The position numbers were made by a program, and so were the translations under genes. A DNA stretch of 64,000 nt from Calothrix sp. NIES-2100 (lineage in GTDB: Bacteria > Cyanobacteriota > Cyanobacteriia > Cyanobacteriales > Nostocaceae): contig AP018178.1 of NCBI GenBank assembly GCA_002368195.1, positions 5,209,286 to 5,273,285 on the forward strand, given 5' to 3'. Every line of letters begins with the position of its first letter. Within the stretch, counting starts at the first letter, position 1. The notes under the pieces were generated by a model, which was given only the letters and a program-made list of their open reading frames with translations, made no database searches and was not told the origin of the DNA. Below are positions 1-20,046 of the stretch, piece by piece.

Positions 1-204
1 CTATTTTTTTGCGTAAATACTACAAGTCATTCCTGTATATCAAAAGACTTAATTACCCCGGATATCACAGTGAAGGTTGAAATTGTCTATTTAAATGCGA
101 TCGCAGAAACTTGAATGTATATTTTTATAACATATTTAAGCTACAAACCAGTCTGTAAAAATTAGATCCGGTAACATCTAAAATTAATTCAATCTATCAA
201 AATT

Positions 205-1878
205 ATGAGTGAAATCCATCTACGTCAAATCAAGTCTTACCTGCAAAAAACATTTAATGATTTGATTGACTTGTCAGATTATCAAAACAAATCTGAAGCA
301 GATAGAGAGTTAATTTTATTAACAAGAAGTCTAGCTGCATTTACATTGATGGTATTAGCTGATATTTCTCCTCAAGAAGCAGCAAAATCAATAGTTGATG
401 GTGGACAAGATAATGGAATAGATGCCATTTATTTTGACAGAAGAGAAAAAATAATGTATGTATTACAATCCAAATGGAAACAGGAAAGTAAAGGAAGTAT
501 AAAAACAGATGAAGTGATGAAATTCACTCGAGGATTTAAAGACTTAGTGAATGCTAGATATGATAGGTTTAACTCAAAACTCAATAACAAAACTCAAGAT
601 ATTGAGGAAGCACTTAATGACGCAGGAACAAGATTTGAAATAATTCTTGTCTATTCAGGACAAACTCCCCTAGCAGATGAGCCTAAAAGAGAATTTGATG
701 ATTTACTAGGTGAGATGAACGATTCATCAGATATAGTCAGTATGAGAGTTCTTAACCAATCAAATATATATAACATAATATCTCAAGGAGCATCTGGCAA
801 TCCTATAAATTTAGATGTTTGCCTTTTTGATTGGGGACAAACTAAAGAACCTTATCAATCTTATTATGGCCAAGTTTCTGCAAGAGAAGTAGCTGATTGG
901 TGGACTAAACATTCTCCTAAATTGTTCTCTTCAAATATTAGACTATTCGTCAAAGATAGTGAAGTCAATGAAGGTATTATCAATACAGTTAAAAAAGAAC
1001 CGGAAAAATTTTGGTATTATAATAATGGTATAACAGCTTTATGTTCTAGTATTGGCAAAAAACCACTTGGAGGTAGTGGAAGAGATACAGGTATATTTGA
1101 ATGCAAAGATGTGAAAATAGTCAATGGTGCTCAGACTGTTGGTTCAATAGCAAGAGCATATCAAAATTCTCCTGAGCAAGTTGAAAAAGCAAGAGTTCAC
1201 ATTCGTTTTATATCTTTAGAAAATTGCCCTGAAGCATTTGCTACAGAGATAACTAGATTCAACAATACTCAAAATAGAATTGATCGTCGAGAATTTGTGG
1301 CTCTCGATCCTGAGCAAGAAAGAATCAAAAATGAACTTCATTTAGAGGGAATTATTTATACTTATAAGTCAGGTGAATCAATTCCAGATGGACAAAAAGG
1401 TTTTGATTTAAATGAAGCTACGATTAGTCGAGCATGTAAACAGAATGAGGTTTCTTTCGCCACAAGAGTTAAAGATAAAATTGGTGTTTTATGGGAAGAT
1501 ATAGAAAAACCCCCATACAAAACTCTATTTAATAGATCGGTGAATGGTTCTAATCTTTGGAAATTAGTTCAAATACTAAGAGTAGTAGAGAAGAAGTTAT
1601 CAGAAGTACAAAAACAACGAGATGGAAGAGAAAAGTTATTTGCTACTCATAGTAATCGTCTCGTTCTACACTTAGTTTACAAAGCTCTACCAGATAATTT
1701 TTTTAGTATATCATCTGATTTAACCCCAGAAGAAATTGATGATATTGAATCTATAACCTCAAAGTTCTTGGGCAGTATTATGAGTGAAAGTAGCAACCTA
1801 TTTCCAAGTTCCTATCCGGCAAATATCTTCAGAAATGTCACAAAATGCCAAGAAATTATTGAAAGAATTTTAAATTGA
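205..1878 (+). CDS. AIPR-family abortive infection (Abi) phage-resistance protein
   Basis: 557-aa ORF. The N-terminal region carries a DGGQDNGIDAIYFD motif and the central region a VNGAQTVGS motif, both characteristic of AIPR (PF10592-type) proteins. The gene is markedly AT-rich and contains no HIP1 (GCGATCGC) sites, unlike the surrounding genome. Confidence 0.6.
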   Translation: MSEIHLRQIKSYLQKTFNDLIDLSDYQNKSEADRELILLTRSLAAFTLMVLADISPQEAAKSIVDGGQDNGIDAIYFDRREKIMYVLQSKWKQESKGSIKTDEVMKFTRGFKDLVNARYDRFNSKLNNKTQDIEEALNDAGTRFEIILVYSGQTPLADEPKREFDDLLGEMNDSSDIVSMRVLNQSNIYNIISQGASGNPINLDVCLFDWGQTKEPYQSYYGQVSAREVADWWTKHSPKLFSSNIRLFVKDSEVNEGIINTVKKEPEKFWYYNNGITALCSSIGKKPLGGSGRDTGIFECKDVKIVNGAQTVGSIARAYQNSPEQVEKARVHIRFISLENCPEAFATEITRFNNTQNRIDRREFVALDPEQERIKNELHLEGIIYTYKSGESIPDGQKGFDLNEATISRACKQNEVSFATRVKDKIGVLWEDIEKPPYKTLFNRSVNGSNLWKLVQILRVVEKKLSEVQKQRDGREKLFATHSNRLVLHLVYKALPDNFFSISSDLTPEEIDDIESITSKFLGSIMSESSNLFPSSYPANIFRNVTKCQEIIERILN

Positions 1879-1916
1879 AGTTGCTTTAAAAAATTTCAAA
1901 ACTTTTTATACAACTT

Positions 1917-2459
1917 TTATCTAATATTTACTGCAGTGACGTTACTACGGAATCGTACCATTTCCTCACTTGCATGAAAATGTAATGCTATTTCTGTCTG
2001 TTTCATTTGACGCTGAACAGCCCAAAGTAAACCCCGCCGAGGAATCTGAAGACAACTACCTAAATAAGTAGCTTCATCTTCATCGCTCTGTCGGCGCAAA
2101 GGAAGCCCAGTATTTGGATCGAAGCGGACAATTTTATGTCTTAATAACAGGTGTCCAAACTCATGCATCAGGTTCGACTCACGCCTCGCGGGTGTATGGA
2201 GTGGGTTGTTTACAATCCAGAGTGGGCTTTGATTGATAATTCCTGCTGACCATTGGTCGCTATCGAGCAATATCTTTACTACACAAGGATCTAAGTTGGG
2301 AATCTGTTCCGGTGTCAAAATTTTGGCATTTAGTTGAACTGCCAGTATATCTGCTGGTAATGGGTCAAATGCCCGTAAGTTTAATAAACTACGTTGCTCA
2401 GTGGCAATGCCTTCACACTTTTGCCTAAACTCAGTTGGTAATGTCTCTGTTAGTGCCAT
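1917..2459 (-). CDS. ImmA/IrrE-family zinc metallopeptidase
   Basis: 180-aa ORF with an HEXXH motif (HEFGHLLLRH). It lies immediately downstream of, and co-oriented with, an XRE HTH gene, which is the classic ImmR/ImmA arrangement. Confidence 0.65.
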   Translation of the reverse strand: MALTETLPTEFRQKCEGIATEQRSLLNLRAFDPLPADILAVQLNAKILTPEQIPNLDPCVVKILLDSDQWSAGIINQSPLWIVNNPLHTPARRESNLMHEFGHLLLRHKIVRFDPNTGLPLRRQSDEDEATYLGSCLQIPRRGLLWAVQRQMKQTEIALHFHASEEMVRFRSNVTAVNIR

Positions 2460-2477
2460 ATTCTTATAATCCGGCTA

Positions 2478-2840
2478 TTAATTGTCGCTTTTTTGAGCAT
2501 TATCGCGAGACGCTGCTTTGACTAATTCTGCTAGTGCATTCGCTATTGCCGGATCGAGTTTTTTCGATGCTCGCAATTGAATTTCTATTGTCTCTAATGT
2601 ATTAAAGTCGGAGGGAGCTTCGGATTCTTCTGTTTTCTTAAATAGTTCAGATGGTGGCACTTGTAGCCAATTGCAAAGTAATAAAAAGGTTTCCATATCG
2701 GGCATTTTGCCATTTTCTACCCGTGAGAGTGTAGCAGAACTAATATTACCTATTTCTTTAGCTGTATCTCGCAAACCCTTGCTCCCTCGCTTCGTCTTCA
2801 CCATTGCACCCAATAAAGCTGTGTCTAAGTTGTATCCCAT
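2478..2840 (-). CDS. XRE-family helix-turn-helix transcriptional regulator
   Basis: 120-aa ORF with an HTH_3-like segment (LRDTAKEIGNISSATLSRVENGK). It is paired with the ImmA-like peptidase and is divergent from the downstream three-gene operon. Confidence 0.7.
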   Translation of the reverse strand: MGYNLDTALLGAMVKTKRGSKGLRDTAKEIGNISSATLSRVENGKMPDMETFLLLCNWLQVPPSELFKKTEESEAPSDFNTLETIEIQLRASKKLDPAIANALAELVKAASRDNAQKSDN

Positions 2841-2988
2841 AGGTTTTTTGTTGCTTTTATGAAACGCTTTGCTTTATTGTATCACTCAGCTATAGTTATT
2901 ATGTATTCTTTATGTATATACGATTAACAGTGTTTCATTTAAGATACGAAATTCATCCAAAACTAATTTTATACAAGGGAGGTACTGC

Positions 2989-4140
2989 TTGGATAATAGC
3001 GAAATCATCTTATTTGATTTCTTGGTTGTTGGGTTAGCAGAGTTTTTGCGTTTAGATACTCTAGACCAAATCCCTAAATACCCCTACCCTGATTTTTTAC
3101 AGCGTGCCTCCAACACTCTGGCATTGAAAATGACAAGTATTCCGTATCCGCGTACTTTAGAAGGTCTTTTTAGTCTTTTAGAAAAACCCTTGCAAACATG
3201 GTATCCACTGGCGATACCGAAAGAGTTTGATTCAGAATATGGCTTGATTTACGATAAAGCGCTAAGTGAAGAAGCAAGTCAATATTTCTACGAACAGTTG
3301 GTAAAACGAGGGCAATTGCCTGAGTTTGCTTCTGTGAAAATACAGCAAATTGCGCTGGAAAACTTTCTATTTCAGAGGCTGCTGGAGAGACTGCAAGAAG
3401 CCAATGAAAAGGATGCTGAACGCGCTGTGCAAGAATATGTTTTGCTGCGGCGATTCTTAATTGAGAATCCTTATACTACTTTAGAGAGCCTACGCAAGAC
3501 CTTTTCTAAAACACGTTACATATCTATTAATGATGTGGGCGAACTGTACGAAGACTGTAAAGAAAATGAATCTTATTGGTGTTGCGATCGCTGCGGCCCT
3601 TTGATTAAAAAACATGGGCATTTACGTAGCATTAAGCCAAGCGTCTGCAACGATCATCGGAAAAACTTGTCTCATGTCCGGCGTATTTATTGGAAGCAAG
3701 GTCTGCGTCGTCTCAAGTTTGGTATTCATTGGCGTGTCTGTTTGCCTGGAATCCCAGAGATAAATCTGTTCGAGGCTTTAAAAAAGCTGCATCAACAACA
3801 GCCAGAATATCTTTGTGAAGTTCAACTTTGGCCTGGTATTGACCGTTACGACTTGCAACTACGTTTTGGTGATGGTTCAATGTGGGCTGTAGATGTCAAA
3901 GACTACCGAAATCCCTATGATTTGGCTTTGCAACTGAAGCCGATATTTGGGGAAGGCGATTTGCACTACGACGAAAGTTTTTATGTGATTCCTAACCATC
4001 GTCTGCGTCAACGCCAAGATTACATTGATATCTTGCGTGAAGAAGCAACAGGATTGCCAAAAAGTACCCATCTTTTCAGCGATAGAGCTTTTGAAGAACG
4101 AGTCAGCACTAAGATAATGCACCTGAGTAAAGGGAAATAG
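2989..4140 (+). CDS. PD-(D/E)xK (restriction-endonuclease fold) nuclease-like protein with Cys-rich insert. Candidate REase component of a pPIWI-RE-type module
   Basis: 383-aa ORF. A candidate catalytic motif FGDGSMWAVDVKDY fits the D...(D/E)xK pattern. A Cys/His cluster (CCDRCGP...H...CNDH) suggests a Zn ribbon. There is a 4-bp gap to the next gene, indicating an operon. Confidence 0.4.
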   Translation: MDNSEIILFDFLVVGLAEFLRLDTLDQIPKYPYPDFLQRASNTLALKMTSIPYPRTLEGLFSLLEKPLQTWYPLAIPKEFDSEYGLIYDKALSEEASQYFYEQLVKRGQLPEFASVKIQQIALENFLFQRLLERLQEANEKDAERAVQEYVLLRRFLIENPYTTLESLRKTFSKTRYISINDVGELYEDCKENESYWCCDRCGPLIKKHGHLRSIKPSVCNDHRKNLSHVRRIYWKQGLRRLKFGIHWRVCLPGIPEINLFEALKKLHQQQPEYLCEVQLWPGIDRYDLQLRFGDGSMWAVDVKDYRNPYDLALQLKPIFGEGDLHYDESFYVIPNHRLRQRQDYIDILREEATGLPKSTHLFSDRAFEERVSTKIMHLSKGK

Positions 4141-4144
4141 CATT

Positions 4145-7100
4145 ATGAGTCAAATGACATTATTTGAGCCACCTGTTATTTTTACAGAACGTATCAAAGA
4201 ATTGAAAGATAACTCTGAGCTAAATCGAGAGCAAGCCCAATCATTACTTCAGGTGGAACTTGGCTTTGCCTTGATGGAGTGTTTAGGAATCGATGATGAA
4301 CCAGTAATAGCAGTTTGGGCAATACTCAGTGGTATGCCTTTGCGACATCCAAGGTTACAAAACTTAGATGAAAGTCAGAAGCGTGCAGTTGCTAACGCTC
4401 GGCAAATTATCCCATTTTCTGCACGTTTTGCATGGTTGGGGGCATTACGTTTTTATATCCGCAATATTCCGCAAAACTGGCGTAATTATGATTTTAATAT
4501 CCAAGACTTAGATTCTCAGATTATTCATGCAGCAAAAGGTCTGCGCCATCAAGTCCACCAAAATTTATATGAAAACTGTCTGAGTGCCGATTTGGAGTTT
4601 CGCCAACGCAGGGCTGAACCAGTAAAGGCAGGAGTTCCCTACCAATTCCAGGCAAAGACAGAAAAAGAAACAGTCACAATGCAAGTACAGTTCACACCAG
4701 AACATTTAAGTAGTGCAAGACAACAGCCTTGGTTTCCCACACCACGCGATCGCAATCCTTTTTCAGTGCGAATTTCAGATTTAGAGTCAGATGCAGAGTT
4801 CCTCGATCGCCGCGAACAGTTACTAGCACGCCGATATGGATGGCATGAAACACAAAAAGGACACTGGGTAAGCCGCTTTCGCAAAATCAACTTTCACAAA
4901 ATTCAGGAAGACGGGACGCTGAGCGATCGCAATACAGAACCACTAGATTTGGATGGTTTTGTACATATTGCGGGACAGGTTGCTTCTGGGAAGTCTACCC
5001 TGTCAACTTTGCTTGCTGTTAATGTATTACGAAATCACCCCGACCGCCGCATCACCTTAGTTGTCAGTGATGTACAGTCAGCAATTCGGTTAGCAAATCA
5101 AATTAATTGGTGGTTCTGTGACGATCCAGAAAACGATGAGCCAGTTGCAGTACCGTTATTAGGACGCACTAAACGAGACGCGCACCTGAAAAGCTTCTAT
5201 GCCTCAAAAGACTTTCAGGAACACTGGCAACGCGGACAACCACACTGGGGCGATCGCTTTTTGGGAACGGCTTGTGCTTTGCAAGGACTCCTACAAGCTA
5301 GCGACATCTTCGACCGTTTGCATGGTAAGCCACTCATACCTGGAACTGAGCCATGTCATGCTTTGAAAGAAGCACCAGAAAGCGAAAGCAAGCGTAAAAA
5401 ACAAAACAATAACCCTGGTGTGTCTCACTTGTGTCCGTTTTTTGCTACTTGCCCATCAAAGCAAGTCTATCGTGATATGCCAAATGCCCGTGTTTGGATT
5501 ACAACTCCAGGCGCAATGGCAATGGCTGGTTTACCGCGTCATCTAGAATTGCGTCCCATCAAGATAGGGGAACTCGTTTATCTACATTCCGATATTGTTG
5601 TGTTTGATGAAGTAGACACAGTTATTAAGTGGTTTGATGACGTATATGCTGAGAAAGTTTTATTGACCAATGGTGGTGTTTTTGATGACATTGGGGTACA
5701 AACTGAAGATTACATGAGATTCAACCGTGTTACCCCACCATTGATGCAGCGATGGACAACCGCAGAACGTCATGTACAAAGTGTAGTTACAGCAACTTTA
5801 ACCCTATTGGATAAGCGTTTAGGACACGAGTTTTTACGTAAATGGATAGAACGTGGCTACTTTACACCTAATTCTCTTCTGTATAAATTTTCTCGTCGCC
5901 TAGCTGGACTTGAAGAGTTAGATTCTCCTGATGTCACTGAGCAAGAAATTAAGGCTAATAATCGACGCGTACAGCAGATAATGCGAAATTTTGACGCATT
6001 ACTTGATGATGACCCTTTACTTGGGCAACCTCGTCCCAATTCTAAAGTTCAGAGACTGGCACTTCTGATTCAACAGATTAATAGTATTGGCGAAAGTGCT
6101 ACCGACGATAGTATTTATCGTGCTTGCAAAGCCTGGATAGTTGATTTTTTCCCCAAAACAGGAAAAAGGTTAGCACGACTGCGAGAACAACTGGAAAAAC
6201 GTCAAAACAATTCACAGCAGACAGCTAAGAAAAAACGGCGGAAGTCCTCAAAACAGGAGGAAGAATCAGATCCCGTAGACACCCTCGAAACCCTAGCTTA
6301 TCGTTTACAGTTTGCCCTGACCATCACCCTTTTAGATCGGCACACGCGCATTGTTTTTTATGAATGGCATCATCGACCACCCACTTTAGATGACGAGCCA
6401 CCACATCGTCGGATGCCGACAGCAATGTTAAATATTTTACCGTTACCACCAACAGGAAGGCAGTTTGGTACCTACTATTCCCGCAAAGATGACAATCACA
6501 ACCAATCTGAAAACAGTAGCGATAATGCCTTATCTTTGTTTGCCTATACCAATATTGGTCGTTACTATGTTTTGAACTTTCATCGCTTGCTGACAGACTT
6601 GGATGGTCAACGCGGCCCCAACGTCTTGGCATTATCAGGAACTTCTTATCTACGAGATTCCACTAAGTTTCATGTGGGTAATCCCCAGGGTATTTTAATG
6701 CCAGAGCCGAGTGCAACAGAAGCGATCGCCCAAAGCCGTTTTAAGTTTTTACCTCAATCGAACCGCAAAGATGAACCTATCCGTATTTCTGGGACACCAG
6801 AACGCCAAAAGATGGGAATGTTTAAAGAGATGGCACAAGCATTAGTTGGTAACAACGGTAGTAGCGATTTAGGACAGGAACTTGAGGAATTGAAACAGCT
6901 TGGCCAGAGCAATCCAGATTTTTGGCAGGATAGGGAACGCATACTATTACTCGTTAATTCCTACGATCAGGCGCGATGGGTAGCAGACGAAATCCGTCAA
7001 TGTTGGTGGGGTATGCGGGAGCAAGTTTACCATTTGCAGCGCGATCGCACAGAAACTCTGACCGAGGATGACATCAACTATCTCTCAAGGATGGAAGTTG

Positions 7101-7768
7101 GTGCGCTCAACCGTGCTGACATCGAAACTTTCGCACTGACTGGCGGTAAAATCCTGGCTGCACCGATAAGTGCAATGGGGCGCGGATTCAACATTTTGAA
7201 TGCCAATGGTAAAGCGGCTTTCGGTGCGGTTTACTTTCTCACCCGTCCCTATCCTCATCCCCATGATACTCAAGCGATCGCTCAAGAAATCAACCGTCGT
7301 GCTTTGGATTGGGTAGAAGATGCGAATTTCGTGGCTTGGGAAAAAGACGGAATTTTAGGGCGTGCGGAAGCTGTGCGCCAATTGGCTGCACGTTACTGGC
7401 GATCGGTAGAACATCGTTCTTACTACAAAACACTGTATAAAAATGAAGAATTACGCGCCTTTCCCCGTCAAGACTTAGCTGCGACTACGGCTGGCGTAAT
7501 CGTTCAAGCCGTAGGTCGCCTTTTACGCGGAGGTGTTCCCTTTCACGCTTACTTTGTTGATGCTGCTTGGGGGCCAAACTATGCCAAAGAGCAACAGCTT
7601 GATACACCACGTACCAGTTTACTAGCAGCAATCATCGATTTGCTTTGTGATTATGTTGATGAAGATACGATAAGTAAGGCTTTATACCAATCAATTGCAG
7701 ATGCTTTGGTTAATATCGATGGCTTCAACTGGGAAATAGATGCAAGAGATAGATCAAGAGATAGATAA
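4145..7768 (+). CDS. Superfamily-2 helicase, DinG/Rad3-like, with unknown ~270-aa N-terminal domain
   Basis: 1207-aa ORF. Walker A is GQVASGKST, Walker B/motif II is IVVFDEVDTV, and motif VI is VQAVGRLLRGG (the Q-x-x-G-R-x-x-R pattern of Rad3/DinG-type helicases). It sits in a tight operon between the nuclease-like gene and the 982-aa gene. Confidence 0.7.
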   Translation: MSQMTLFEPPVIFTERIKELKDNSELNREQAQSLLQVELGFALMECLGIDDEPVIAVWAILSGMPLRHPRLQNLDESQKRAVANARQIIPFSARFAWLGALRFYIRNIPQNWRNYDFNIQDLDSQIIHAAKGLRHQVHQNLYENCLSADLEFRQRRAEPVKAGVPYQFQAKTEKETVTMQVQFTPEHLSSARQQPWFPTPRDRNPFSVRISDLESDAEFLDRREQLLARRYGWHETQKGHWVSRFRKINFHKIQEDGTLSDRNTEPLDLDGFVHIAGQVASGKSTLSTLLAVNVLRNHPDRRITLVVSDVQSAIRLANQINWWFCDDPENDEPVAVPLLGRTKRDAHLKSFYASKDFQEHWQRGQPHWGDRFLGTACALQGLLQASDIFDRLHGKPLIPGTEPCHALKEAPESESKRKKQNNNPGVSHLCPFFATCPSKQVYRDMPNARVWITTPGAMAMAGLPRHLELRPIKIGELVYLHSDIVVFDEVDTVIKWFDDVYAEKVLLTNGGVFDDIGVQTEDYMRFNRVTPPLMQRWTTAERHVQSVVTATLTLLDKRLGHEFLRKWIERGYFTPNSLLYKFSRRLAGLEELDSPDVTEQEIKANNRRVQQIMRNFDALLDDDPLLGQPRPNSKVQRLALLIQQINSIGESATDDSIYRACKAWIVDFFPKTGKRLARLREQLEKRQNNSQQTAKKKRRKSSKQEEESDPVDTLETLAYRLQFALTITLLDRHTRIVFYEWHHRPPTLDDEPPHRRMPTAMLNILPLPPTGRQFGTYYSRKDDNHNQSENSSDNALSLFAYTNIGRYYVLNFHRLLTDLDGQRGPNVLALSGTSYLRDSTKFHVGNPQGILMPEPSATEAIAQSRFKFLPQSNRKDEPIRISGTPERQKMGMFKEMAQALVGNNGSSDLGQELEELKQLGQSNPDFWQDRERILLLVNSYDQARWVADEIRQCWWGMREQVYHLQRDRTETLTEDDINYLSRMEVGALNRADIETFALTGGKILAAPISAMGRGFNILNANGKAAFGAVYFLTRPYPHPHDTQAIAQEINRRALDWVEDANFVAWEKDGILGRAEAVRQLAARYWRSVEHRSYYKTLYKNEELRAFPRQDLAATTAGVIVQAVGRLLRGGVPFHAYFVDAAWGPNYAKEQQLDTPRTSLLAAIIDLLCDYVDEDTISKALYQSIADALVNIDGFNWEIDARDRSRDR

Positions 7769-7773
7769 AGAGT

Positions 7774-10722
7774 ATGACGAGCAAAATTACACCAGAAAAT
7801 ATTCTGTTACCTGCACGGATGAGTTTGGTAAAAAATGCCTTTGCCAAGCTAGAGATTGCTGTGTTGCCATTTCCTTTTGTCCAGATAGTAAGAGACTTTT
7901 GCCACGATATCAAACAAACCCTTTATCGTGGTAAAAACAGGGAGGTTACACCACCATATCGACAGTTAAATAATGCTTTGCTTGCTTGTGCATCTACGCT
8001 GACATACGGCTTTGAGTATGTTGGTTCTGACGAGGAAACCAAGCTTCCTTTATATCAAGCATTAGCTGTAGGAACTCCAGAGAACCCATTGAAAACTCCC
8101 ACACCCCAGCAGATACATGAATTAGTGAGAATTTGGGCGCAAGAGTGGACGAAACAGTATGGTACAAAAAATGAAGTGAATAGCGTGTGCGATCGCTTCC
8201 TTGAAAGGATAAATACCATACCACCTGATTGGGATTGGCAACCTATTAAACCGGAAACACTTGTACGCGATATCAATGCAGAGAGAGGATTAGGATTTCA
8301 AGCCATTCCTAGTCTGCTTGCAACCATGTTGCATGGTAAAAAGTGCATCATTAACTCTGGAAAAAGACAACAGGAAATTCAATGGCGCAAAGTACAGGGA
8401 GGTGGTTCGGGTAGAGTAGGACTTTACGTAGTTAGTAAGCCATTTAAGGCGAATTATACAGATAATTATGGTAAGGAAAAAGAAGGTTACTTTGCTTACC
8501 GTCTAGACTTTAATGTTGAAACCCAAGCAGGAAGATTCAATGATAATGGCAATCTAGAACCGTGGATTTTCTTACATTTGAGTTGTCAAAGATATCCCCA
8601 TAAACCACTTTTAGAAGCTAACTATGGACGTGATATCTCTGTTCTCATGGGTATGAATAAGGCACGTTTATCTGATTATGAGGTGGATTCAACTTTAGTG
8701 CGTCTTGTTATTGATAACAATAGCAAAGAAGAAGAAAATTTGTGGAGGTTACAACTACCAGAATTACTTGCTGCATTCAAAGCACGCGCTCTAGAACAGC
8801 CAGATAATATTCTGAATAATCCCGCAGGATTTGGTAATTTAGATAACTCAAATAATTGGGGTGACAGGGACGAATATTATATAGTTCATACTGAAGGCTA
8901 TAAGTATGAGCATGAGCAACATAAACGAGGACATAGTATAAAAACTGGTTTTAGTTTTTTGGAACGGGGCGATATTATTGCACGAGTATTAGAACTACTC
9001 AACGGCGTTTTAATCCCAGATAATCCGATGCAATCTGACATTCCTGCACCATCAGGTATAAAAGCACCACTAGCAATGCGGGATTACGAATTTATTTCTA
9101 GACCTCGCACAAAACGCCAACCTTATCAGCAAATTGCTACTGATGCTATTTACCGAGCATTACAAGGTAAGCCAATGCACATCTTTATAATTTATCGGGA
9201 ACAAGACACTTGTGAAGTAGTTTACCAGCAATTACGCGATGTATTTCTTCTCAATGAAAATGAAGATTTTCCACAAGATATAACAGTTTCAAAAATTTTG
9301 ATTGATGATGCGACACTTTTACAACCACTTAATACAGGTGGATTTTCGCCTAAAGATCGTAATAAATTCGATGATCAAATACGCAAGCAGCATCAAGTGA
9401 AACGAGACTTATGGCGTACTTTTCTCCAAAAAAATGCTATTCCTCTGATAGATTTTGAGACTAATCCCCACTGTTTAGCGATTATTGAAATTGGCAGAAT
9501 TAAGAAAAAGGGAATTCTCCCCCAACAAAACATTAAAGGAGCTATTCGTGAAGCTTGTGTTAGAGAGGGAATTAGCTCCCAAATGATACAGTCGATACCG
9601 ACAGGTAAACCAAAATCAATTAACTCAGAAGATGATGAAGACAAATCACCAGCCTACAGCAAAGCAACAAAAGGACGGGTGATGAATGCCCTACTGGATG
9701 GAACATTACGTCAAACTGGAGCATTATATGGACTACCTTCTCAACTCTATGAGCAAGCCAAAATACCAAAAGAAATTGCCAAAGAGTTAGATGTAATTGC
9801 TTTTTGTCGTCGCAAAACTAACCAATATCAAGGTGATATTCACTATGTGCTTGCAGTTCGTTTGCGTGCAACAGGTGCGGTATATGTAATGTTTCCTGAT
9901 GGTGATGATTGGATTCCTTACTCACAGGCAGGAATTGCTGTCGGAAAAATTTTTGCTAACGCACGACGCGATCGCCATGAAAATACAAAACGCATTCAAA
10001 GTAAAATCAAGTTGAGCGGTACAGAATTAGTACAGTTTGTTGCACGCGTAGTGACCAAACATTTAGACAGACCAACTATTGTTTTAATTGAAGCCGAAGG
10101 GTGGCGTAACGAACGTGGCGAAGATAATGATGGCTCAGTCTGGTTTCAGTTGAAAAATGAGTACCTGCTGGCAAAACGCAACGTTTTAGACTTTCGCCAT
10201 GTTCCTGGTCACAGTTGCGAGTACAGCCGTGAGAGTAACCAACTAGAGAACTTGCTAGCAGTAATTCGGATTCGCACTGATAAAGAAACACCACAGTACA
10301 TCACCAATCGAGAAACTTGGAACGAAGATTATCCAGCGCGAGATTTCCAACATCTAAGCGGTTTTTACGATAAGTCAGCACCAGAACTACTACATTACTT
10401 CTCTGTGGGAAAACTGCCAAAAACACAGAAGGCGCAAGATGAAAAGCCAATACCTGAACTTTATAAACTCGGTTATCAAGAGGATAAATTCGGTGCTAAC
10501 TTTCCATTCAAACATCAACAGCTAGTGGAAATTGTACCGTTCTTTGTACGCCCAGATTTTCAACCAGAAGAAGCTTTAAAGGCACTATGTCGCGTTCCTC
10601 ACTATTTAAGATGTTCACCTGCTTGGTCTATGGGAAATATCGTTTTGCCATACCCAATGCACTTAGGTCAGGAAGTCATAGAGGATCACCTATGCATACT
10701 TGGTGTAAATTTACAACTTTAA
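7774..10722 (+). CDS. Large uncharacterised protein. Candidate pPIWI-RE (PIWI-RE family) protein of an REase-DinG-pPIWI_RE module
   Basis: 982-aa ORF starting 5 bp after the helicase stop. I see no recognisable enzymatic motif. Size, operon position and the partner genes (REase-fold nuclease plus DinG-like helicase) match the three-gene pPIWI-RE architecture. The assignment rests on context only. Confidence 0.35.
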   Translation: MTSKITPENILLPARMSLVKNAFAKLEIAVLPFPFVQIVRDFCHDIKQTLYRGKNREVTPPYRQLNNALLACASTLTYGFEYVGSDEETKLPLYQALAVGTPENPLKTPTPQQIHELVRIWAQEWTKQYGTKNEVNSVCDRFLERINTIPPDWDWQPIKPETLVRDINAERGLGFQAIPSLLATMLHGKKCIINSGKRQQEIQWRKVQGGGSGRVGLYVVSKPFKANYTDNYGKEKEGYFAYRLDFNVETQAGRFNDNGNLEPWIFLHLSCQRYPHKPLLEANYGRDISVLMGMNKARLSDYEVDSTLVRLVIDNNSKEEENLWRLQLPELLAAFKARALEQPDNILNNPAGFGNLDNSNNWGDRDEYYIVHTEGYKYEHEQHKRGHSIKTGFSFLERGDIIARVLELLNGVLIPDNPMQSDIPAPSGIKAPLAMRDYEFISRPRTKRQPYQQIATDAIYRALQGKPMHIFIIYREQDTCEVVYQQLRDVFLLNENEDFPQDITVSKILIDDATLLQPLNTGGFSPKDRNKFDDQIRKQHQVKRDLWRTFLQKNAIPLIDFETNPHCLAIIEIGRIKKKGILPQQNIKGAIREACVREGISSQMIQSIPTGKPKSINSEDDEDKSPAYSKATKGRVMNALLDGTLRQTGALYGLPSQLYEQAKIPKEIAKELDVIAFCRRKTNQYQGDIHYVLAVRLRATGAVYVMFPDGDDWIPYSQAGIAVGKIFANARRDRHENTKRIQSKIKLSGTELVQFVARVVTKHLDRPTIVLIEAEGWRNERGEDNDGSVWFQLKNEYLLAKRNVLDFRHVPGHSCEYSRESNQLENLLAVIRIRTDKETPQYITNRETWNEDYPARDFQHLSGFYDKSAPELLHYFSVGKLPKTQKAQDEKPIPELYKLGYQEDKFGANFPFKHQQLVEIVPFFVRPDFQPEEALKALCRVPHYLRCSPAWSMGNIVLPYPMHLGQEVIEDHLCILGVNLQL

Positions 10723-10760
10723 TCTCAGGCATCAAGATAGTAATATCCTCCCCCAATATT

Positions 10761-12212
10761 CAGTAAACCAAAAAGTTTTTCCCCAAAGAGCGATCGCTAA
10801 TCACTCTTACGTATAACAAGGTAGTGTAAATTACTAAATGCATAATTAATGCTTATACTGCTCTTTTGGGGTTCAAAAAATGAAATGATGAAAGTAGTGT
10901 GTAGCATATTGGCTCTTAAAATTGACTGTTTCATCAGAAGAACTGGTTTTAACAGACTCAGAAACCCTTGAAGAGGTTATTGAGTGTTTAGTAGAAAATT
11001 TTTCCATTGAAACTCAGGGGGGATGTGACCAACAAACTTTATTTGAGATTCTTATAAAAGCAGCCAGCAGTGGAGATAGTATTGAGAATACAGCCAAATT
11101 ATTAAAAAATGTTCCTACAGCTAATGATATTAGATATCATCTTAATAAAATCAACAATTTTGAGGAGTTAGAGACACGAATTAATCAAGCATTGAAAAGT
11201 CGAATTCCTTTAGGTTTAAAAAAAGGATGTTTAAAAATAGCGATTGATTTAAATTTAATTTGTTATTATGGTAAGCCAACATTCTTAGAATTACCATACA
11301 TATATAAAAGTGAAGCTAAATCTGGTACTCATTCATTTTTGACGGCTGCAACTTTATATGTGATTAACAAAAACAAGCGTGTAACTCTAGCCGTCAGAGG
11401 TGTTCGCCGACTAGATACTAGTGTAGCGATAATTACTTATTTATTGGCGGAACTTGAATCCCTTAAAATAAATGTAAAAAAACTCTATTTAGATAGGGGA
11501 TTTTTTAATACTCCTGTAATAAGATGGTTGCAAGCATTAGATATTCCATTTATGATGCCTGCTATCAAGACAGGAAAAAAGGGAGGAATTAAACAGTTTT
11601 TGAAGGGAAGAAAAAGCTATAAAACTACCCATACTATTACAAGAGACAAAGATGACTCAGTCACCTTTGACTTATGGATTGTCTGTAAATATAGAAAAGG
11701 AAAGCGTAAAAAATATGGGGTGCAATACCTTGCTTATGTTACTTATAAAATCCAAACTAATTTAGATTATATATATCAGGATTATCGAAAAAGATTTGGC
11801 ATCGAAAGTAGTTATCGGCTGCAAAATCTTTGTCGAATTAGAACAAATAATAAAAATCCCGCATTAAGATTACTATTCGTTGGTATATCTTTTCTTTTAG
11901 TTAATATTTGGGTTAACCTCCTCTGGCTTAGAATAAGTCGGAAAAGGCTCATGTTGCCGATTAATTTACCGGACACTTTTCGTACTTAAACAGATGTTAG
12001 CCTTTTTATCTCAAGCCCTACAGCGTAAATATCAAGTAGTAGAAAGCATTTATATTCCACGACTGTTAGCACCAACAAATTATCAATCAGCTAATCATAA
12101 GTAATCATTATCCATACTATGTCTGCTGGTTAAAGGAGCGAGTATTAAAAAGTATCGTAGGCTACAAAATATTTAGCGATCGCTCTTTGGGGAAAAACTT
12201 TTTGGTTTACTG
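10761..12212 (+). mobile_element. Insertion sequence (IS4 superfamily-like) with perfect 39-bp terminal inverted repeats
   Basis: Left IR at 10761-10799 is CAGTAAACCAAAAAGTTTTTCCCCAAAGAGCGATCGCTA. Right IR at 12174-12212 is its exact reverse complement. The element encloses a single transposase ORF. No obvious target-site duplication flanks the IRs. Confidence 0.8.
10922..11989 (+). CDS. DDE transposase (IS4/IS701-like)
   Basis: 355-aa ORF with a probable TTG start. The C-terminal motif YRKRFGIESSYRLQN resembles the IS4-family Y-(2)-R-(3)-E-(6)-K signature. The gene is AT-rich and lies between the terminal IRs. Confidence 0.7.
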   Translation: MTVSSEELVLTDSETLEEVIECLVENFSIETQGGCDQQTLFEILIKAASSGDSIENTAKLLKNVPTANDIRYHLNKINNFEELETRINQALKSRIPLGLKKGCLKIAIDLNLICYYGKPTFLELPYIYKSEAKSGTHSFLTAATLYVINKNKRVTLAVRGVRRLDTSVAIITYLLAELESLKINVKKLYLDRGFFNTPVIRWLQALDIPFMMPAIKTGKKGGIKQFLKGRKSYKTTHTITRDKDDSVTFDLWIVCKYRKGKRKKYGVQYLAYVTYKIQTNLDYIYQDYRKRFGIESSYRLQNLCRIRTNNKNPALRLLFVGISFLLVNIWVNLLWLRISRKRLMLPINLPDTFRT

Positions 12213-12658
12213 ATGATACAAAAGCAACAAAACTTCATCCGTTGCAGAAATATCTCTGGACAGAACTAGAGGTTTTCCATCTAATTCATGAATTATTGAA
12301 TGTTCTAGTTGAACAATTTGGGCAATGGTTTCTGCAACAACTTTTCGATCCTGATTCCAAACTAGGCTAAGAAACTCGGCAAATATCCATTTGCTGGCAT
12401 GAAGCAATGGGAAAAGATGGCAAACCTGCTTACGTAGATTATATTGTTAAATTGCCTAAGCGATCGCTAGAAGAGTTTTGTCGCTGGGTGTATCGTTTTA
12501 TGGACAATGCTCAATTTATCTATCCTCAATATCTAGCTGAACAACACCAGAAAATGGCTTCTGCCTTAATAGCTCGGTATTTTATGTAACAAATAAAAAA
12601 TTGTTATATTACTTTTAAGTATGGATTTTAGCAGGGGTTGTCAGGGTAATTGATGAAT

Positions 12659-13822
12659 TTATCCTGAAATATCCTTTCTTAAAACTCGATACCAATTGTT
12701 AATTTCCCGACTAACTAAAATATCCTGGTTAATAGGTTCTAGATGGGAAAGGGAATTTCGCATTTCTTTAAGTTGTTTAACAAGTCGTCGCAGATCAAGA
12801 GGCACAATTTGATCAGTCTGATTCAGTTGATATTCAATGTGACCAATTTCTAAATCTCTTAAATCTTTAATAACTTCACCAAAGCTGGTTTTAAAAGGTA
12901 CTGTTAAAACTTTAGAAAACCGTTGAATAATTTCTTGTCTTCTCTCTTCAATAAAGGGGAAAATTTCTCCGACTTCACCTCGCCAAATTCTCGATTTTAT
13001 TTCTCCTTGGGCTAAATTATCAACCGCTAAAACAGCCGAATGAATTTTTTCTTCACCCTCAATAGTATTTTTAAATCCTTGACACCAACTCTCTGCAAAA
13101 GTAATATTCTTTGTGCGATCGCACTGCCAACCATGTTGTTGAGCAATTTCTTGTAGAATCGGTTCTGGGTGAAGAATATGCTCAATTTTTTCAGCGGCTA
13201 AACGTTCGCTAACTTCAAAATCCCACAGCGCTAGATGGGTGATAACTGATATCGCTACCCGCTTTTGCAAATCGGAGAGTCGGTTTCCGGGAAAGAGGTT
13301 AGCCGTGAACAATAGCATATCCAGAAAGCTGACAACTCCCTGCCAAGTTTGATGTGATAGACAGACATCCTCGACTGGGGGCGCGATCGCTATTTCTCCG
13401 ACTAATGAGACGATAAATAGCGTACGATGCAATTGGGGGATACCGCGACAAGGTTGTTCGTAGTCGGAAAGGAATTTTTGCCAAGCAGGCCAAACATCGA
13501 CAGTCAAATTATCTAACCAGATAATCTTACCAGCAAATTTTTGATTTTGTGCTAATGTCCGTGCATTCCGTACTTCGTTGGGGCTAATTTCGCCGACAAA
13601 CAAATCAAAGAGGAAATGCACCGGATCGAGATAAGTTTCGTCGCTAACAGAAATTTTATGCCAGTCCCAATCGTCCCCAAGTTCAGAGCGAATCGCGTTT
13701 GCTAGACCACTGGGTAAATGTTCTGGTAAACAAAGAATAACATTTTTTCCATCTCTGAAGTCTTCAACAACGCGATCAATAAATTGGCTAGGGCCAGGAA
13801 GTTGCCAGCAAAAACAAGTCAT
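12659..13822 (-). CDS. Hypothetical protein, operon partner of the 1780-aa P-loop giant protein
   Basis: 387-aa ORF that begins 7 bp after the stop of the upstream giant gene on the minus strand. No recognisable motifs were found. Confidence 0.5.
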   Translation of the reverse strand: MTCFCWQLPGPSQFIDRVVEDFRDGKNVILCLPEHLPSGLANAIRSELGDDWDWHKISVSDETYLDPVHFLFDLFVGEISPNEVRNARTLAQNQKFAGKIIWLDNLTVDVWPAWQKFLSDYEQPCRGIPQLHRTLFIVSLVGEIAIAPPVEDVCLSHQTWQGVVSFLDMLLFTANLFPGNRLSDLQKRVAISVITHLALWDFEVSERLAAEKIEHILHPEPILQEIAQQHGWQCDRTKNITFAESWCQGFKNTIEGEEKIHSAVLAVDNLAQGEIKSRIWRGEVGEIFPFIEERRQEIIQRFSKVLTVPFKTSFGEVIKDLRDLEIGHIEYQLNQTDQIVPLDLRRLVKQLKEMRNSLSHLEPINQDILVSREINNWYRVLRKDISG

Positions 13823-13829
13823 ATTATGA

Positions 13830-16800
13830 TTATGCCCCCAAAGATGTGACGATCCGCCCTACCAGTGGATCGATACTCCAATTACTATTACCCACTGGAT
13901 ATGCAAGTCGTAACAATTCTGCCCATTTAAAAGTTTGATGGACAATTTCCGCTGATATGTCCTCAACAATTTCGATTAAATCTGCAATTGCAGCTTCTTT
14001 GAGGGTAGCTAAAGCGTGTAATATTTGTTTTTGTTGAGGATGAGTATTATCCAATCCCATGAGTATTGCTAATTCATTCAGGTATTCCGAATTAGTTAAA
14101 GAATCTGCTAATTTTTGTAAATGCGGTTCCCAGTGTTGGTCTGATTTAGCTTGTTGGTAAAAACGCTGAAGTAGCACTGGCCAATTTCCGGTAATTTCGG
14201 TAATCTTTTCGCGGCTTTCTTTATTCGCGGCGGTAAAATTGTCATCTTCTAACCATTGTCGGAGTGCTGCATCATGCCAAGGTTTGAGACTAAAAATACT
14301 CACTCCTTGAGACACTAAGGAATCAAGACAATTAAGATTAATTAATTCCCATACTTTTGGGGGATTGGCAACAAAAACAACTCTAGCAAAGGACTTTTTA
14401 GATTTTAGTCTCTGAACTTTTTCTAGTGCTATCTTGACCCATTCTTGACTCCAATCACAAGTAGATGACACAAACATAATAGTTGTGCCATCAATCCCCA
14501 TTTCTCGCTTATCTAAGTTGGCTAAATGTTTAGTAAAATCAGATTCTCCAGCGACATTTTCTATGGGAATCCAGAATTCTTTACCAACTGCGGAAATTAA
14601 GAAATCCTGTAATTCATTTAAACCTGCGGCGGGACAACCAAAAATAATTGAGACTCCATTTTCGCGTCTCCGCAATGCTGATTCTTGTTGTACTGTCAAA
14701 GGACTGCGCCGAGATAAATCGTGTCGCAAAGCTGAGCGAAAAATTTCCGCATCGTAACCTAAAGCAGGTTCGCGACTTCTGAGAAGTTGTTCTTCAATTT
14801 CGGCTTCTGTACCTAACAGCAAAACTACGTTGGGACTTCTCAGCGCAAAGCCGCCTTCATTAGTTTCTCTTAAAACTCCTAAACCCACCATTTCTTCTAG
14901 TAAGGCGCGAAATTCATCGGTGGATTTACCTTGAAATCCTTCTGACCACCAAGACAAAACAGCATCCTGAATCCAGGATACAGAAAATCCATCCACCATG
15001 CCTTTTGGACTGGTGAGTGATTCATAAGCAATGGAATATGCGATCACTTCATAGCGTTGGTCTAGTTGTAGTGTCCATAGTAAGCGATCGCGGATCGCTT
15101 TACGCAGATTATTGCTTTGATAAGTTTCGTCAACTTGCTTATCTGCAATCTCATAGGGCGGTGTATTATTGCGATCGTACTTCTTTAAATGATTATTATT
15201 AACATCTCTGAGCAACTCATGACAGTAGAGTTGAATTAAACTCGGATAGTAATTAGTTTGAGACAGAATTCGCGTTACCAAATCGTCTGATAATTCATAG
15301 CCAATATTTGCTAAAGGGCGTTTGATTAACTCTCTAGCTTCGCGCCATTCCTTATTTTCTAACAATGGGCCAATGCAAAGTGGCTCTCCATAATGAGCTA
15401 GCGGATGGTTTTCTACCCTAGTAGTACGTTGAACATTGTGTAACCCGGCGAATACTACTTTGAAACGGCGATCTGTTTTATCCATCAAACCTTTGAAACG
15501 GCTAGTTTGACTAAATTTATTTTGTCCATCAGATTCTAGGAATTTGTCGGCTTCATCAAGTAATAAAAGAATCCGCCGACTTTTATCCTGTTCTAACCAA
15601 TTTTGCAGATGTCGTAGCAAAGTTTCCGCACCTATATTGGTGGGACTCATCCGGGGTACAACTTCTAATTTTTTAAACTCATCTGCTAATAAGCTCCAAA
15701 TATCTTCAATTGGTCTGTGGATACCAATACCATCAGCTTTTAAATCGAGAAACAGAGCTATTCTTCTTTCCTGGGGTGCGTGAAATTCCCGTTCTACAGA
15801 ACGCAATAAAGCAGTTTTTCCTAACTGTCTACCTCCATAAATAAAGCAAGAACCCATAGAATTAATTACGGAGTCTCGCTCTTGTTTCCGTCCGTAAAAA
15901 ATTTCTGGAGGAACTAAGCCAGCAGTGGTAGCATGAGTTTCTAAAAAAGTAAAAGGTAGAGCGCACTTAAATAATGTCCGCAGTCGTGGTTCTTCTGCAC
16001 CGCAAATATACAGCATTAATATGTCATCAATCAGCACAAATGTTCGACGGCGTTCTCGACAAAGCCTTGCTAAATCTCTACGTCTGAGTTCTGTCAACCG
16101 TCCAAAAAAGAAGACAAAAGCTGGGGAACCATGAGAAGTTTCGCCAACTGCATTGAGAATGTCTTCTGCTGTGGGTCTATCCCAGACACAAAGAATACGA
16201 TATTGTCCGTGAGCCGCCGATCCATAAGTAGCAACAGGACACAATTCTTTATTACGGATGATTTCTGTTGTGATTTGCAGCCAAGTTCGACCGCCGACAC
16301 GTTCAATTGTAATTCGCGATGGATTAAATCCTAAGTTAACCAGAATAATCCCCGCATCAGACTCTAAAATTTGTTGGAATTTACCGGCTTTTTTCGCAGA
16401 AAACCAAGCATTGAGCATTTTCGCTGCTCTTTCAGTTGCAGAACCAGAAAGTCTGCGGAAATTGATTCCACAAAAATCTTCTCGTCTTTGGACTTTGGAA
16501 ATCAGAAGATTCGGGCTATTTTCTTCCATGAATTTGTCAATTTCAGTCACTTTGAGGGGGAAGAAATCGCTAAAATCATTTGCAGCTATTTCTACAGGAG
16601 GAATTTCATCGCCTCTATCTATCATGTCGATGTATTCATTAGCTGTCAGCACATTTCCCTGGTTTAATAGTTCTTGGATGCGGACATAACTTGGTTGTTC
16701 GGAAGTGAGGGAAAGTGCATTTAATCTTTGTCTTACCTGCTCAATTGCTGCTGCTTTCTTTTGCGCGATCGCGGCTTTAATCTCTTCTAACTTTTCATGT

Positions 16801-19172: not shown

Positions 19173-19572
19173 ATTTTTAACTGATGAAAAATTAACCAGA
19201 GTGGTAGTAAAAACACTCCGTTGTCCCTGAATCAGTACCAGTAGTCAAAACTATATCTCAGTAATTAACCACAACTGCGCGTCAACTTTCCCACTGCTGC
19301 TGGTAAAGCTAGACTCCCGCGTTCTTCAGCTAAAGCACGGTAATGTAACGGAAAAGCACTTTTTATATACAGCTGATAAATACAGTCAAGCCTTTGATAC
19401 GCAGTGACTAGGTCATACATGGGTAGATTCCCATTTACACTTTATGTAAACTTTATAACATATTTGCCGGATTTCCAGAAATAAAGCGGCAATACTGATA
19501 TCTTGCACCTACACCCTATAAGGGTGAGGCTATACAAACTAAGCCTACCTACGCAGGTTTGACAACGTTTAG

Positions 19573-19778
19573 CCCGAATTCAATAAACGACTACCCGAAT
19601 TCAATAAACGACTACCCAAATTCAATAAACGACTACCCGAATTCAATAAACGACTACCCAAATTCAATAAACGACTACCCAAATTCAATAAACGACTACC
19701 CAAATTCAATAAACAACTACCCGAATTCAATAAACGACTACCCAAATTCAATAAACGACTACCCCAATTCAATAAACC
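19573..19778. repeat. 21-bp tandem repeat (~10 copies) GAATTCAATAAACGACTACCC(A/G)
   Basis: Direct reading of the sequence. The track ORFs on both strands (NSINDYP and LLNLGSR heptapeptide repeats) are artefacts of the 21-nt periodicity. Confidence 0.85.
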
Positions 19779-19811
19779 AGAAGCGATCGCCTTCGTCGTC
19801 TGTCCCATGAT

Positions 19812-20046
19812 TAAGTTGACACGTAAGAGGGTAACCATTGGTGTCAACTTAAGCTCAAAGGCTTATCCCACAGGCATTTTACCCCACCCCTCAATCCCCT
19901 CCCCGTAAACGGGGAGGGGAGGTTTTGCGTCAGCAAAGCCAGGGTGGGGTAACGCGGATCTTGATGTTAAGTGAGAGAATTCGCTCATCAAGTCTTGGCA
20001 AGGGTTTCGCGTTAAGTTGACACGTAAGGGGGTAACCCGCCCCTAC
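19812..20046. repeat. MITE-like element (family A) with TTAAGTTGACAC/GTGTCAACTTAA termini and central CCCCTCCCCG-TAAA-CGGGGAGGGG hairpin
   Basis: It is homologous over ~200 bp to 49606-49826. It carries GGGGCGGG / CCCGCCCCTAC-type terminal motifs that recur elsewhere in the window. Confidence 0.7.

Follow-up and report, generated by a model that had tools for sequence, protein, structure and literature searches.

The 64,000-nucleotide stretch of the Calothrix sp. NIES-2100 chromosome analyzed here (the window) carries, between positions 1917 and 10722, what is almost certainly a five-gene pPIWI-RE module, in which a divergent pair encoding an XRE-family helix-turn-helix protein and an M78 metallopeptidase is followed by genes for a restriction endonuclease-like nuclease (REase), a DinG-like helicase and a PIWI-RE protein (Table 1). 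The triad formed by the last three genes (2989–10722) is an intact copy of a known, catalogued kind of system that was described computationally in 2013, when the components, domain architectures and gene order of the three-gene pPIWI-RE system were set out (Burroughs, Iyer & Aravind, 2013; PMC3702460). The original prediction, made from the letters of the window, had pointed to three tightly packed, co-oriented genes with gaps of 4 and 5 bp whose size and order matched this system, and it is borne out by the exact open reading frame (ORF) coordinates (gaps of 4 nt, then 5 nt), by the gene order and by the matches of all three proteins to family models. In the hidden Markov model (HMM) searches that it had suggested, each protein matches its own pPIWI-RE models in both Pfam and PADLOC, with family E-values spanning 1e-24 to 1e-126 that are not due to chance. 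Its fallback, an unclassified helicase-nuclease defense candidate, can be set aside, as the class is catalogued in Pfam, in PADLOC (as “argonaute type III”, a name equated with PIWI-RE systems in a 2024 survey) and in the NCBI names given to close homologues (“pPIWI_RE module domain-containing protein”, “restriction endonuclease-related protein”). The third protein, ORF3, is itself 100% identical to NIES2100_42180, there annotated “hypothetical protein”, and none of the triad proteins has an NCBIfam model. Since sequence searches of the PDB with ORF2, ORF3, the M78 and helix-turn-helix proteins and a helicase profile returned no informative solved relatives, the family placement rests on Pfam, PADLOC and fold searches.

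ORF1 starts with TTG and is preceded by the ribosome-binding site AGGGAGG, an arrangement kept in relatives. There are 9 HIP1 sites in the 7.7-kb triad, corresponding to 1.16/kb vs. 1.25/kb across the remaining window, and in Nostocaceae relatives with greater than 80% identity the module likewise adjoins glmS on its downstream side (glmS is found upstream of the module in eight close relatives). The native HIP1 density and the shared glmS position uphold the earlier remark that the operon is long-resident. All five module genes give a ratio of nonsynonymous to synonymous substitution rates (dN/dS) of 0.08–0.22 against three orthologous loci, which corresponds to purifying selection.

Table 1. 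Features of the Calothrix sp. NIES-2100 locus in window coordinates, with the five module genes and their control region listed before the neighboring features.
Feature	Coordinates	Strand	Details
M78 metallopeptidase, ImmA-like	1917–2459	-	180 aa, HEFGH at residues 99–103; Pfam Peptidase_M78
XRE-family helix-turn-helix protein	2478–2840	-	120 aa; Pfam HTH_3 3e-7
Divergent control region	2841–2988		148 bp, two operator-like dyads and the AGGGAGG ribosome-binding site of ORF1
pPIWI-RE-associated nuclease (ORF1)	2989–4140	+	383 aa; helical domain Y, zinc ribbon, PD-(D/E)xK domain
DinG-like superfamily-2 helicase (ORF2)	4145–7768	+	1207 aa; N-terminal domain Z, four-cysteine cluster
pPIWI-RE Argonaute-like protein (ORF3)	7774–10722	+	982 aa; domains X, MID, PIWI/RNase H
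AIPR/AbiU-like abortive-infection gene	205–1878	+	Pfam AIPR 1.4e-39, PADLOC AbiU 7e-34
Insertion sequence	10760–12213		perfect 41-bp terminal inverted repeats at 10760–10800 and 12173–12213
DDE_Tnp_1 transposase	10922–11989		inside the insertion sequence
1780-aa protein and the 387-aa protein directly after it	12659–19172	-	AAA_22/nSTAND1-like NTPase core at residues ~1090–1320 of the 1780-aa protein
Major Vault Protein homologue	30690–33311	-	873 aa

The nuclease, helicase and PIWI-RE proteins

ORF1 matches Pfam pPIWI_RE_REase (1.7e-30) and pPIWI_RE_Y (6.6e-7) as well as the PADLOC model PprRE (7e-25), and its predicted fold is that of a restriction-nuclease-like PD-(D/E)xK protein, with DdmD among the nearest solved structures in the fold search. 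The combination of domain Y, a zinc ribbon and a restriction-endonuclease fold without a methylase is that of the first gene in the family. The Cys-rich insert noticed in the original prediction corresponds to the zinc ribbon, with C199, C202, C220 and H223 invariant. The catalytic motif had been read as “GDG…VDVK”, of which only the second part stands: the (D/E)xK element is D302-V-K304 and is invariant in the homologue alignment, while the invariant nuclease partners are E257 and D288 rather than any residue of GDG. The aspartate of GDG (D295) is only ~90% conserved and is placed by the model in a hairpin loop, and it was ruled out as the catalytic PD residue in favor of D288 on the grounds of invariance and model position. 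The predicted catalytic residues E257, D288, D302 and K304 are all intact and invariant.

ORF2 matches Pfam pPIWI_RE_Z (1.8e-31) and PADLOC PprDinG (8.1e-126). All three of the superfamily-2 (SF2) helicase motifs of Rad3/DinG type that had been claimed for it are present, with GQVASGKST (motif I) at residues 277–285, VFDEVD (motif II) at 486–491 and QAVGRLLRG (motif VI) from 1121, and their key residues, namely K283 in Walker A, D488-E489 in Walker B and Q1121, R1125 and R1128 in motif VI, are kept in 37–38 of 38 sequences and are invariant in a 16-sequence alignment. Between Walker A and Walker B there are four invariant cysteines (C377, C404, C430 and C436), a cluster that by its position and conservation appears to be a DinG/XPD-type iron-sulfur (Fe-S) signature. 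The family helicase as characterized in PMC3702460 is a member of the SF2 DinG clade with a domain Z, a Cys-rich Fe-S region after strand 2 and a large helical insert. Canonical helicase Pfam models match weakly (DEAD in 11/16 members and Helicase_C_2 in 5/16), and neither phmmer nor a helicase profile run against the PDB found a solved relative of ORF2 by sequence.

ORF3 carries domain X, formerly DUF3962 (Pfam pPIWI_RE_X, 7.3e-17, residues 26–410), a MID domain at ~538–653 and a PIWI/RNase H domain at 673–973. The last of these is recognized with 85.5 bits against a cutoff of 25 (RNaseH_pPIWI_RE, 7.4e-24; PADLOC PprPIWI 1.6e-49), and MID_pPIWI_RE (1e-5) reaches 26.3 bits, just below its cutoff of 26.6; an identical protein carries a precomputed PF18157. 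The AlphaFold2 (AF2) model of ORF3 matches Argonaute, PIWI, Med13 and EndoV folds in the fold search, with DdmE among the nearest solved structures. DSSP assigns strands at 673–681, 690–697 and 703–706 and then a helix at 716–732, such that the model contains an extra α-helix after the first three-stranded β-meander of the RNase H fold, a feature described for the PIWI-RE family in PMC3702460.

Conservation was assessed over a broad PIWI set obtained by exhaustive HMM search of 1.84 billion proteins, in which 269 representatives passed E ≤ 1e-3, and 51 of these representatives were aligned. Within the MID domain, all 51 of these diverse sequences share R592 and Q603, and the conservation of R635 and R646 is 90% or higher, while the family “R” and “E” correspond to R832 (45/51), R834 (48/51) and E919 (50/51), which align with R639, R641 and E718 of the Pseudomonas protein discussed below. 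The invariance of R592 and Q603 favors binding of a guide 5′ end and argues for a MID pocket that, on this prediction, anchors it. The Argonaute-like model and the conserved MID residues thus agree with the RNase-H-like PIWI core and MID domain that the original prediction had expected of the 982-aa protein.

Taken over the whole triad, the Calothrix proteins match the family models (PF18154, PF18155, PF18156, PF13111, PF18157 and PF13032) and no defining feature differs: the near-abutting genes, the Y/zinc ribbon/REase protein, the domain Z helicase with its putative Fe-S Cys cluster, the X/MID/PIWI protein with the R and E residues, and the lack of a methylase are all shared with the pPIWI-RE family.

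The divergent XRE/M78 pair and its control region

The original prediction had listed an Abi gene, an ImmA/XRE pair and an insertion sequence as flanks of the operon, and all are found (AIPR/AbiU, M78 and helix-turn-helix proteins, and a DDE transposase). The pair does lie next to the operon as stated, but it is not a mere flank. We examined 67 related loci, one genome per species, of which 43 hold the nuclease N-terminus together with at least 1.3 kb of upstream sequence, and a divergent XRE/M78 pair is located within 1.7 kb upstream of the triad in 41 of these 43. The 41 loci come from many cyanobacteria, from Spirosoma and Hymenobacter (Bacteroidota), from Anaerolineae (Chloroflexota) and from a Capsulimonadaceae genome (Armatimonadota), and across loci the identity of the XRE/M78 proteins tracks that of the triad. 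Of the two exceptions, one is eroded and the other is a Microcoleus locus whose upstream genes are unrelated. Judged by this co-occurrence, the pair is a conserved part of the module, which has five genes and not three.

The Microcoleus locus (Microcoleus sp. GLPB, L040 1961–5204) is the sole intact triad without XRE/M78, and it has short-chain dehydrogenase-like and leucine-rich-repeat genes upstream.

The M78 protein matches Pfam Peptidase_M78 (4.3e-15) over residues 82–172, with weak PADLOC matches to capP and RmrA; H99, E100 and H103 are kept in all 48 homologues compared, and the dN/dS of its gene is 0.08–0.18. In the XRE protein the linker is variable and the C-terminal helix, which carries the motif QLRA, is conserved, L89-R90-A91 being invariant. 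In the 148-bp control region between the divergent genes there are two dyads, GTTGCTTTTATGAAAC at 2850–2865 and GTTTCATTTAAGATAC at 2932–2947, which stand out as conserved islands when 20 intergenic regions are aligned and are the only two matches to the dyad motif in 64 kb vs. 0.11 expected by chance. At Scytonema, Rivularia, Spirosoma and Anaerolineae loci the corresponding region again contains dyads of the form GTTTC-N(4–6)-GAAAC, often two of them. A scan for generic sigma-70 promoters and terminators found no signal above background, either in the control region or past the PIWI-RE gene.

This layout, a small XRE protein and a short HExxH M78 protein encoded divergently with predicted operator repeats, is of the ImmR/ImmA type as far as sequence can tell. 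The same divergent helix-turn-helix and HExxH M78 arrangement is known for ImmR/ImmA (ICEBs1, prophages), DdrO/IrrE (Deinococcus) and CapH/CapP (CBASS and other defense operons), in each of which the protease cleaves the repressor after DNA damage; CapH/CapP-type regulators are located upstream of and opposite to the defense operons and respond to DNA damage. The cleavage site in CapH is F82-R83, which L89-R90 of the Calothrix XRE protein resembles as a hydrophobic-Arg pair. In CapP and IrrE a GAF domain of the M78 protein senses single-stranded DNA (ssDNA), and CapP also has a helix-turn-helix; the Calothrix M78 protein is ImmA-sized and lacks the C-terminal helix-turn-helix and GAF domains of the CapH/CapP (IrrE/DdrO-type) systems. 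With this in mind, the XRE protein is a candidate repressor of the divergent promoters and the M78 protein a candidate anti-repressor protease of the module, and by analogy the pair probably controls when the operon is switched on. A divergent XRE/M78 pair with conserved operators is not among the features given in the consulted sections of PMC3702460, where the only related mentions are of REase-fused helix-turn-helix domains and of a zincin peptidase joined to a stand-alone PIWI-RE protein.

The PIWI active site and a proposed mode of action

The only biochemically studied member of the family is PsPIWI-RE of Pseudomonas (Stutzerimonas) stutzeri DSM 4166 (PMC10991935), in which a D525A mutation abolishes cleavage. 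Its sequence was translated from the gene in the paper's supplement and aligned to ORF3 by three methods (mafft --add, MAFFT of 51 sequences, and hhalign against a 21-sequence Pseudomonas-clade alignment). In each case D525 lands on non-acidic residues of ORF3, namely R679–K681 (mafft --add, as read from the printed alignment), C678 (MAFFT of 51 sequences) and R680 (hhalign). The stretch C678-R679-R680-K681 stands in place of the first catalytic aspartate, no acidic residue occurs at 678–681 in the Calothrix clade, and D or E occupies the D525 position in 21/21 sequences of the Pseudomonas clade. The other two positions look retained, as D610 aligns with E773 or A774 and D766 with D971, where both E773 and D971 are conserved. 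In terms of the DEDX catalytic tetrad, the first acidic residue appears to be missing at the D525 position and the second to be kept as E773. Given the non-acidic residues opposite D525, we infer that the PIWI-RE protein of the Calothrix clade is most likely a non-cleaving recognition subunit or sensor. The family description in PMC3702460 has the catalytic residues retained by just a subset of its members.

D673 was also considered as the first catalytic aspartate and rejected: it is invariant in the near clade, but it sits at the N-terminal start of strand β-1 (DSSP) and is D in only 16/51 of the broader members.

The original prediction called the system almost uncharacterized experimentally, which holds for the triad as a whole, although one PIWI-RE protein, PsPIWI-RE, has been studied both in vitro and by deletion. 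The Pseudomonas locus has the same triad context and Pfam families, with overlapping genes for a REase of 345 aa, a helicase of 1023 aa and a PIWI-RE protein of 783 aa. PsPIWI-RE and Calothrix ORF3 share ~17% identity, the Calothrix protein being ~200 aa longer, and the Pseudomonas triad has no divergent XRE/M78 pair, unlike that of Calothrix. In place of XRE/M78, the Stutzerimonas locus (L069 3537–11352) has two co-oriented genes (119 and 277 aa, no Pfam match) ahead of the triad, and its neighborhood contains BrxC/BrxD-like, TerB, IS21 and Mu-transposase genes.

In DdmDE of Vibrio cholerae and Lactobacillus casei, a catalytically inactive Argonaute hands its target to a helicase-nuclease. 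The helicase and nuclease are fused in DdmD and encoded by separate genes in Calothrix, DdmE is a short Argonaute with an INS domain where PIWI-RE has its own X domain, and the predicted DinG/XPD-type Fe-S cluster further sets the Calothrix helicase apart. A phmmer search against all PDB sequences, including the DdmD and DdmE entries, gave no match for ORF2 or ORF3 (ORF1 was outside that search); the resemblance to DdmDE thus exists at the level of fold without detectable sequence homology, and it is one of functional analogy and not of membership. Type IV CRISPR-Cas with CasDinG likewise joins a nucleic-acid-guided module to a DinG-type helicase (discussed as type IV/“type U” in PMC3702460), although the Calothrix locus has no CRISPR array or Cas protein; within positions 1–20000 of the window Rfam found no RNA family, and no guide-producing or CRISPR-like RNA element is evident there. 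The long-B prokaryotic Argonaute (pAgo)-nuclease systems share with the triad a guided module and an accessory nuclease, the PIWI-RE family being distinct from long-B pAgos.

By analogy with DdmDE, we judge it somewhat probable that the module performs derepressible, guide-directed elimination of DNA by the PIWI-RE protein, helicase and nuclease acting together. In unstressed cells the XRE protein bound to the two GTTTC/GAAAC dyads would hold down both its own promoter and that of the operon, until the M78 protein becomes active upon stress or invasion, through a signal most probably tied to DNA damage, as it is in ImmR/ImmA, DdrO/IrrE and CapH/CapP. Cleavage of the XRE protein, for which L89-R90 is the candidate site, would then allow the operon to be expressed. 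The PIWI-RE protein would anchor the 5′ end of a short guide in the MID pocket and pair the guide with complementary invader nucleic acid, the guide-target duplex probably being an RNA/DNA hybrid by analogy with PsPIWI-RE, and recognition would proceed without slicing, the first catalytic aspartate apparently being lost in the Calothrix clade. Target-bound PIWI-RE may in turn recruit or license the Fe-S DinG-like helicase to unwind and translocate from the marked site, after which the PD-(D/E)xK nuclease would cut the DNA such that the plasmid or phage genome is eliminated.

Recognition of the invader could also take place without any guide. An RNA-dependent restriction hypothesis was proposed for exactly this triad by Burroughs, Iyer and Aravind (PMC3702460), in which PIWI-RE, without a pre-loaded guide, senses RNA-DNA hybrids (R-loops) arising on invader DNA that is being transcribed or replicated, the DinG protein unwinds or translocates and the REase cuts the exposed DNA. 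PsPIWI-RE acts only on RNA/DNA hybrid combinations (PMC10991935), a slicer-dead PIWI domain would suit a hybrid sensor, and the Fe-S DinG-type architecture is conserved. The same protein, however, binds and uses short guides in vitro, and conservation across ORF3 peaks at the 5′-end pocket residues R592 and Q603, which favors a discrete 5′ end over an internal hybrid. As host R-loops would also be targets, self-discrimination is left unexplained, and we consider guide-independent restriction unlikely.

Inheritance, neighborhood and significance of the module

A number of observations weigh against guide-directed elimination of invading DNA. No experiment showing defense by any triad, against phage or plasmids, was found in the literature searched, PIWI-RE goes unmentioned in a September 2026 review of Argonaute target recognition, and the sole in vivo phenotype for a family member is the ciprofloxacin sensitivity of the P. 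stutzeri deletion and not a loss of immunity. The “inactive” call for the PIWI domain relies on alignment to a protein of ~17% identity, with an hhalign probability of 38%, and the conservation of E773 and D971 makes residual or alternative catalysis possible. For ORF2 the DinG label comes from architecture and PADLOC naming, the similarity to canonical DinG/XPD proteins being weak. The M78 protein (180 aa) shows no Pfam domain beyond the peptidase, and this short length leaves no room for the GAF ssDNA-sensing domain of CapP/IrrE. About 10 of the 67 related loci are eroded. Finally, vertical inheritance beside glmS in the Nostocaceae relatives with greater than 80% identity, native HIP1 density and the lack of a plasmid copy fit a housekeeping role equally well as a resident defense island; regarding the last of these, when the PIWI-RE proteins of Calothrix and P. 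stutzeri were compared with 72,556 plasmids by tblastn there were no matches, and thus no evidence for plasmid carriage.

Such a role could be maintenance of the chromosome (replication, decatenation or repair under impaired topoisomerase function or replication) that is induced by DNA damage through the ImmA/XRE switch, with no part in immunity. Deletion of PsPIWI-RE leaves P. stutzeri ~15-fold more sensitive to ciprofloxacin and makes the cells filamentous, the same ciprofloxacin effect is given by other pAgos, and regulators of the XRE/M78 class usually respond when DNA is damaged; vertical inheritance at one site after glmS, native HIP1 density and absence from catalogued plasmids speak for maintenance as well. 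The Pseudomonas locus that gave the ciprofloxacin phenotype, however, is one without the regulator pair. The patchy distribution across phyla (cyanobacteria, Bacteroidota, Chloroflexota and Armatimonadota) together with frequent erosion is typical of defense genes, the neighbors are defense-type or mobile (AbiU/AIPR, insertion sequence, STAND NTPase) unlike those of core repair genes, and a PD-(D/E)xK nuclease without a partner methylase next to an Argonaute sensor is more readily understood as acting against invaders. We regard chromosome maintenance as quite improbable.

The order REase, DinG, PIWI-RE is identical in all intact related loci. The eroded ones are L016, L020, L024, L025, L028 and L055 (Nostoc/Aulosira) and L033, L046, L049 and L064. 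A recurrent deletion in the six Nostoc/Aulosira loci has removed the N-terminus of the repressor, the entire nuclease gene and helicase residues 1–841, with a full-length PIWI-RE ORF surviving in four of the six (L016, L020, L024 and L025). Other loci are broken by insertions, among them the 93%-identical locus of Tolypothrix tenuis PCC 7101.

The recurrence of this erosion suggests that the nuclease and helicase come at a cost or can be spared. Their frequent loss in relatives, like the tight dedicated repression proposed above, would suit a toxic effector, and the triad might then act by abortive infection, with the helicase and nuclease degrading DNA indiscriminately, the host chromosome included, once PIWI-RE has detected invader nucleic acid, and the cell dying or arresting as in the long-B pAgo-nuclease systems and SPARDA. 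Characterized inactive pAgos with associated nucleases do behave in this way. The closest structural analogues, DdmE and DdmD, nevertheless eliminate plasmids without killing, and pairing with a processive helicase points to degradation that is directed from a marked site; the sequence gives no means of telling abortive infection from directed elimination, and on balance we rate the former as very improbable.

As for the surroundings, the defense-type island made up of AbiU, the PIWI-RE module, the insertion sequence and the STAND pair starts directly downstream of glmS (L001 1–2162, before the start of the window), and a psaC-like ferredoxin gene precedes glmS at the Calothrix locus. The 3′ end of glmS is well known as a hotspot at which Tn7-like elements insert. 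The AIPR/AbiU gene has a GC content of 32.5% and no HIP1 site, and was apparently acquired after the PIWI-RE module; as a part of the module it was rejected, since it occurs with the triad only in close Nostocaceae relatives. A fourth conserved gene was also sought past the PIWI-RE gene and rejected, as the synteny found there is only local and confined to close relatives. In Calothrix the insertion sequence begins 38 bp past the PIWI-RE stop codon, and the native 3′ end or terminator of the operon may thus be displaced; each of its 41-bp terminal inverted repeats contains the HIP1 octamer GCGATCGC. The 1780-aa and 387-aa proteins beside it may be a second, unclassified STAND-type defense pair, the 387-aa protein having no Pfam, PADLOC or NCBIfam match. 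Farther along the window, the 873-aa ORF is homologous over its full length to the eukaryotic Major Vault Protein (Vault repeats 6e-65, MVP_shoulder 2.6e-52 and further matches to Vault_2, Vault_3 and Vault_4), with native-looking HIP1 sites inside the gene, in a cyanobacterial chromosome.

PIWI-RE is the one major prokaryotic branch of Argonaute type for which neither an in vivo function nor a structure was found published in the literature searched. The Calothrix locus offers experimental handles on it, as it combines a complete copy under selection in a culture-collection strain with a likely repressor, a protease and two candidate operators, and the residues that may be changed to abolish activity include K283 in the helicase, D302 and K304 in the nuclease, and R592 and Q603 in the predicted pocket for the guide 5′ end. 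What is new here is the evidence for conserved repressor/protease regulation and for the probable loss of slicing in the Calothrix clade. The boldest reading, which we hold tentatively and at less than even confidence, is that the ~980-aa “cyanobacterial-type” PIWI-RE clade is a distinct, inducible and slicer-dead machine that resembles DdmDE but evolved independently, and that it is governed by an XRE/ImmA-like switch. Should this fail confirmation, the locus simply adds another annotated member to a known family. If it is true, the module would be the first Argonaute-family system known with its own proteolytic derepression switch, whose operator GTTTC-N4–6-GAAAC could be used for induction in the laboratory, the solution of an inactive Argonaute plus a helicase-nuclease would have arisen at least twice, and Argonaute-type systems would join the defense operons that are gated by repressor/protease switches.

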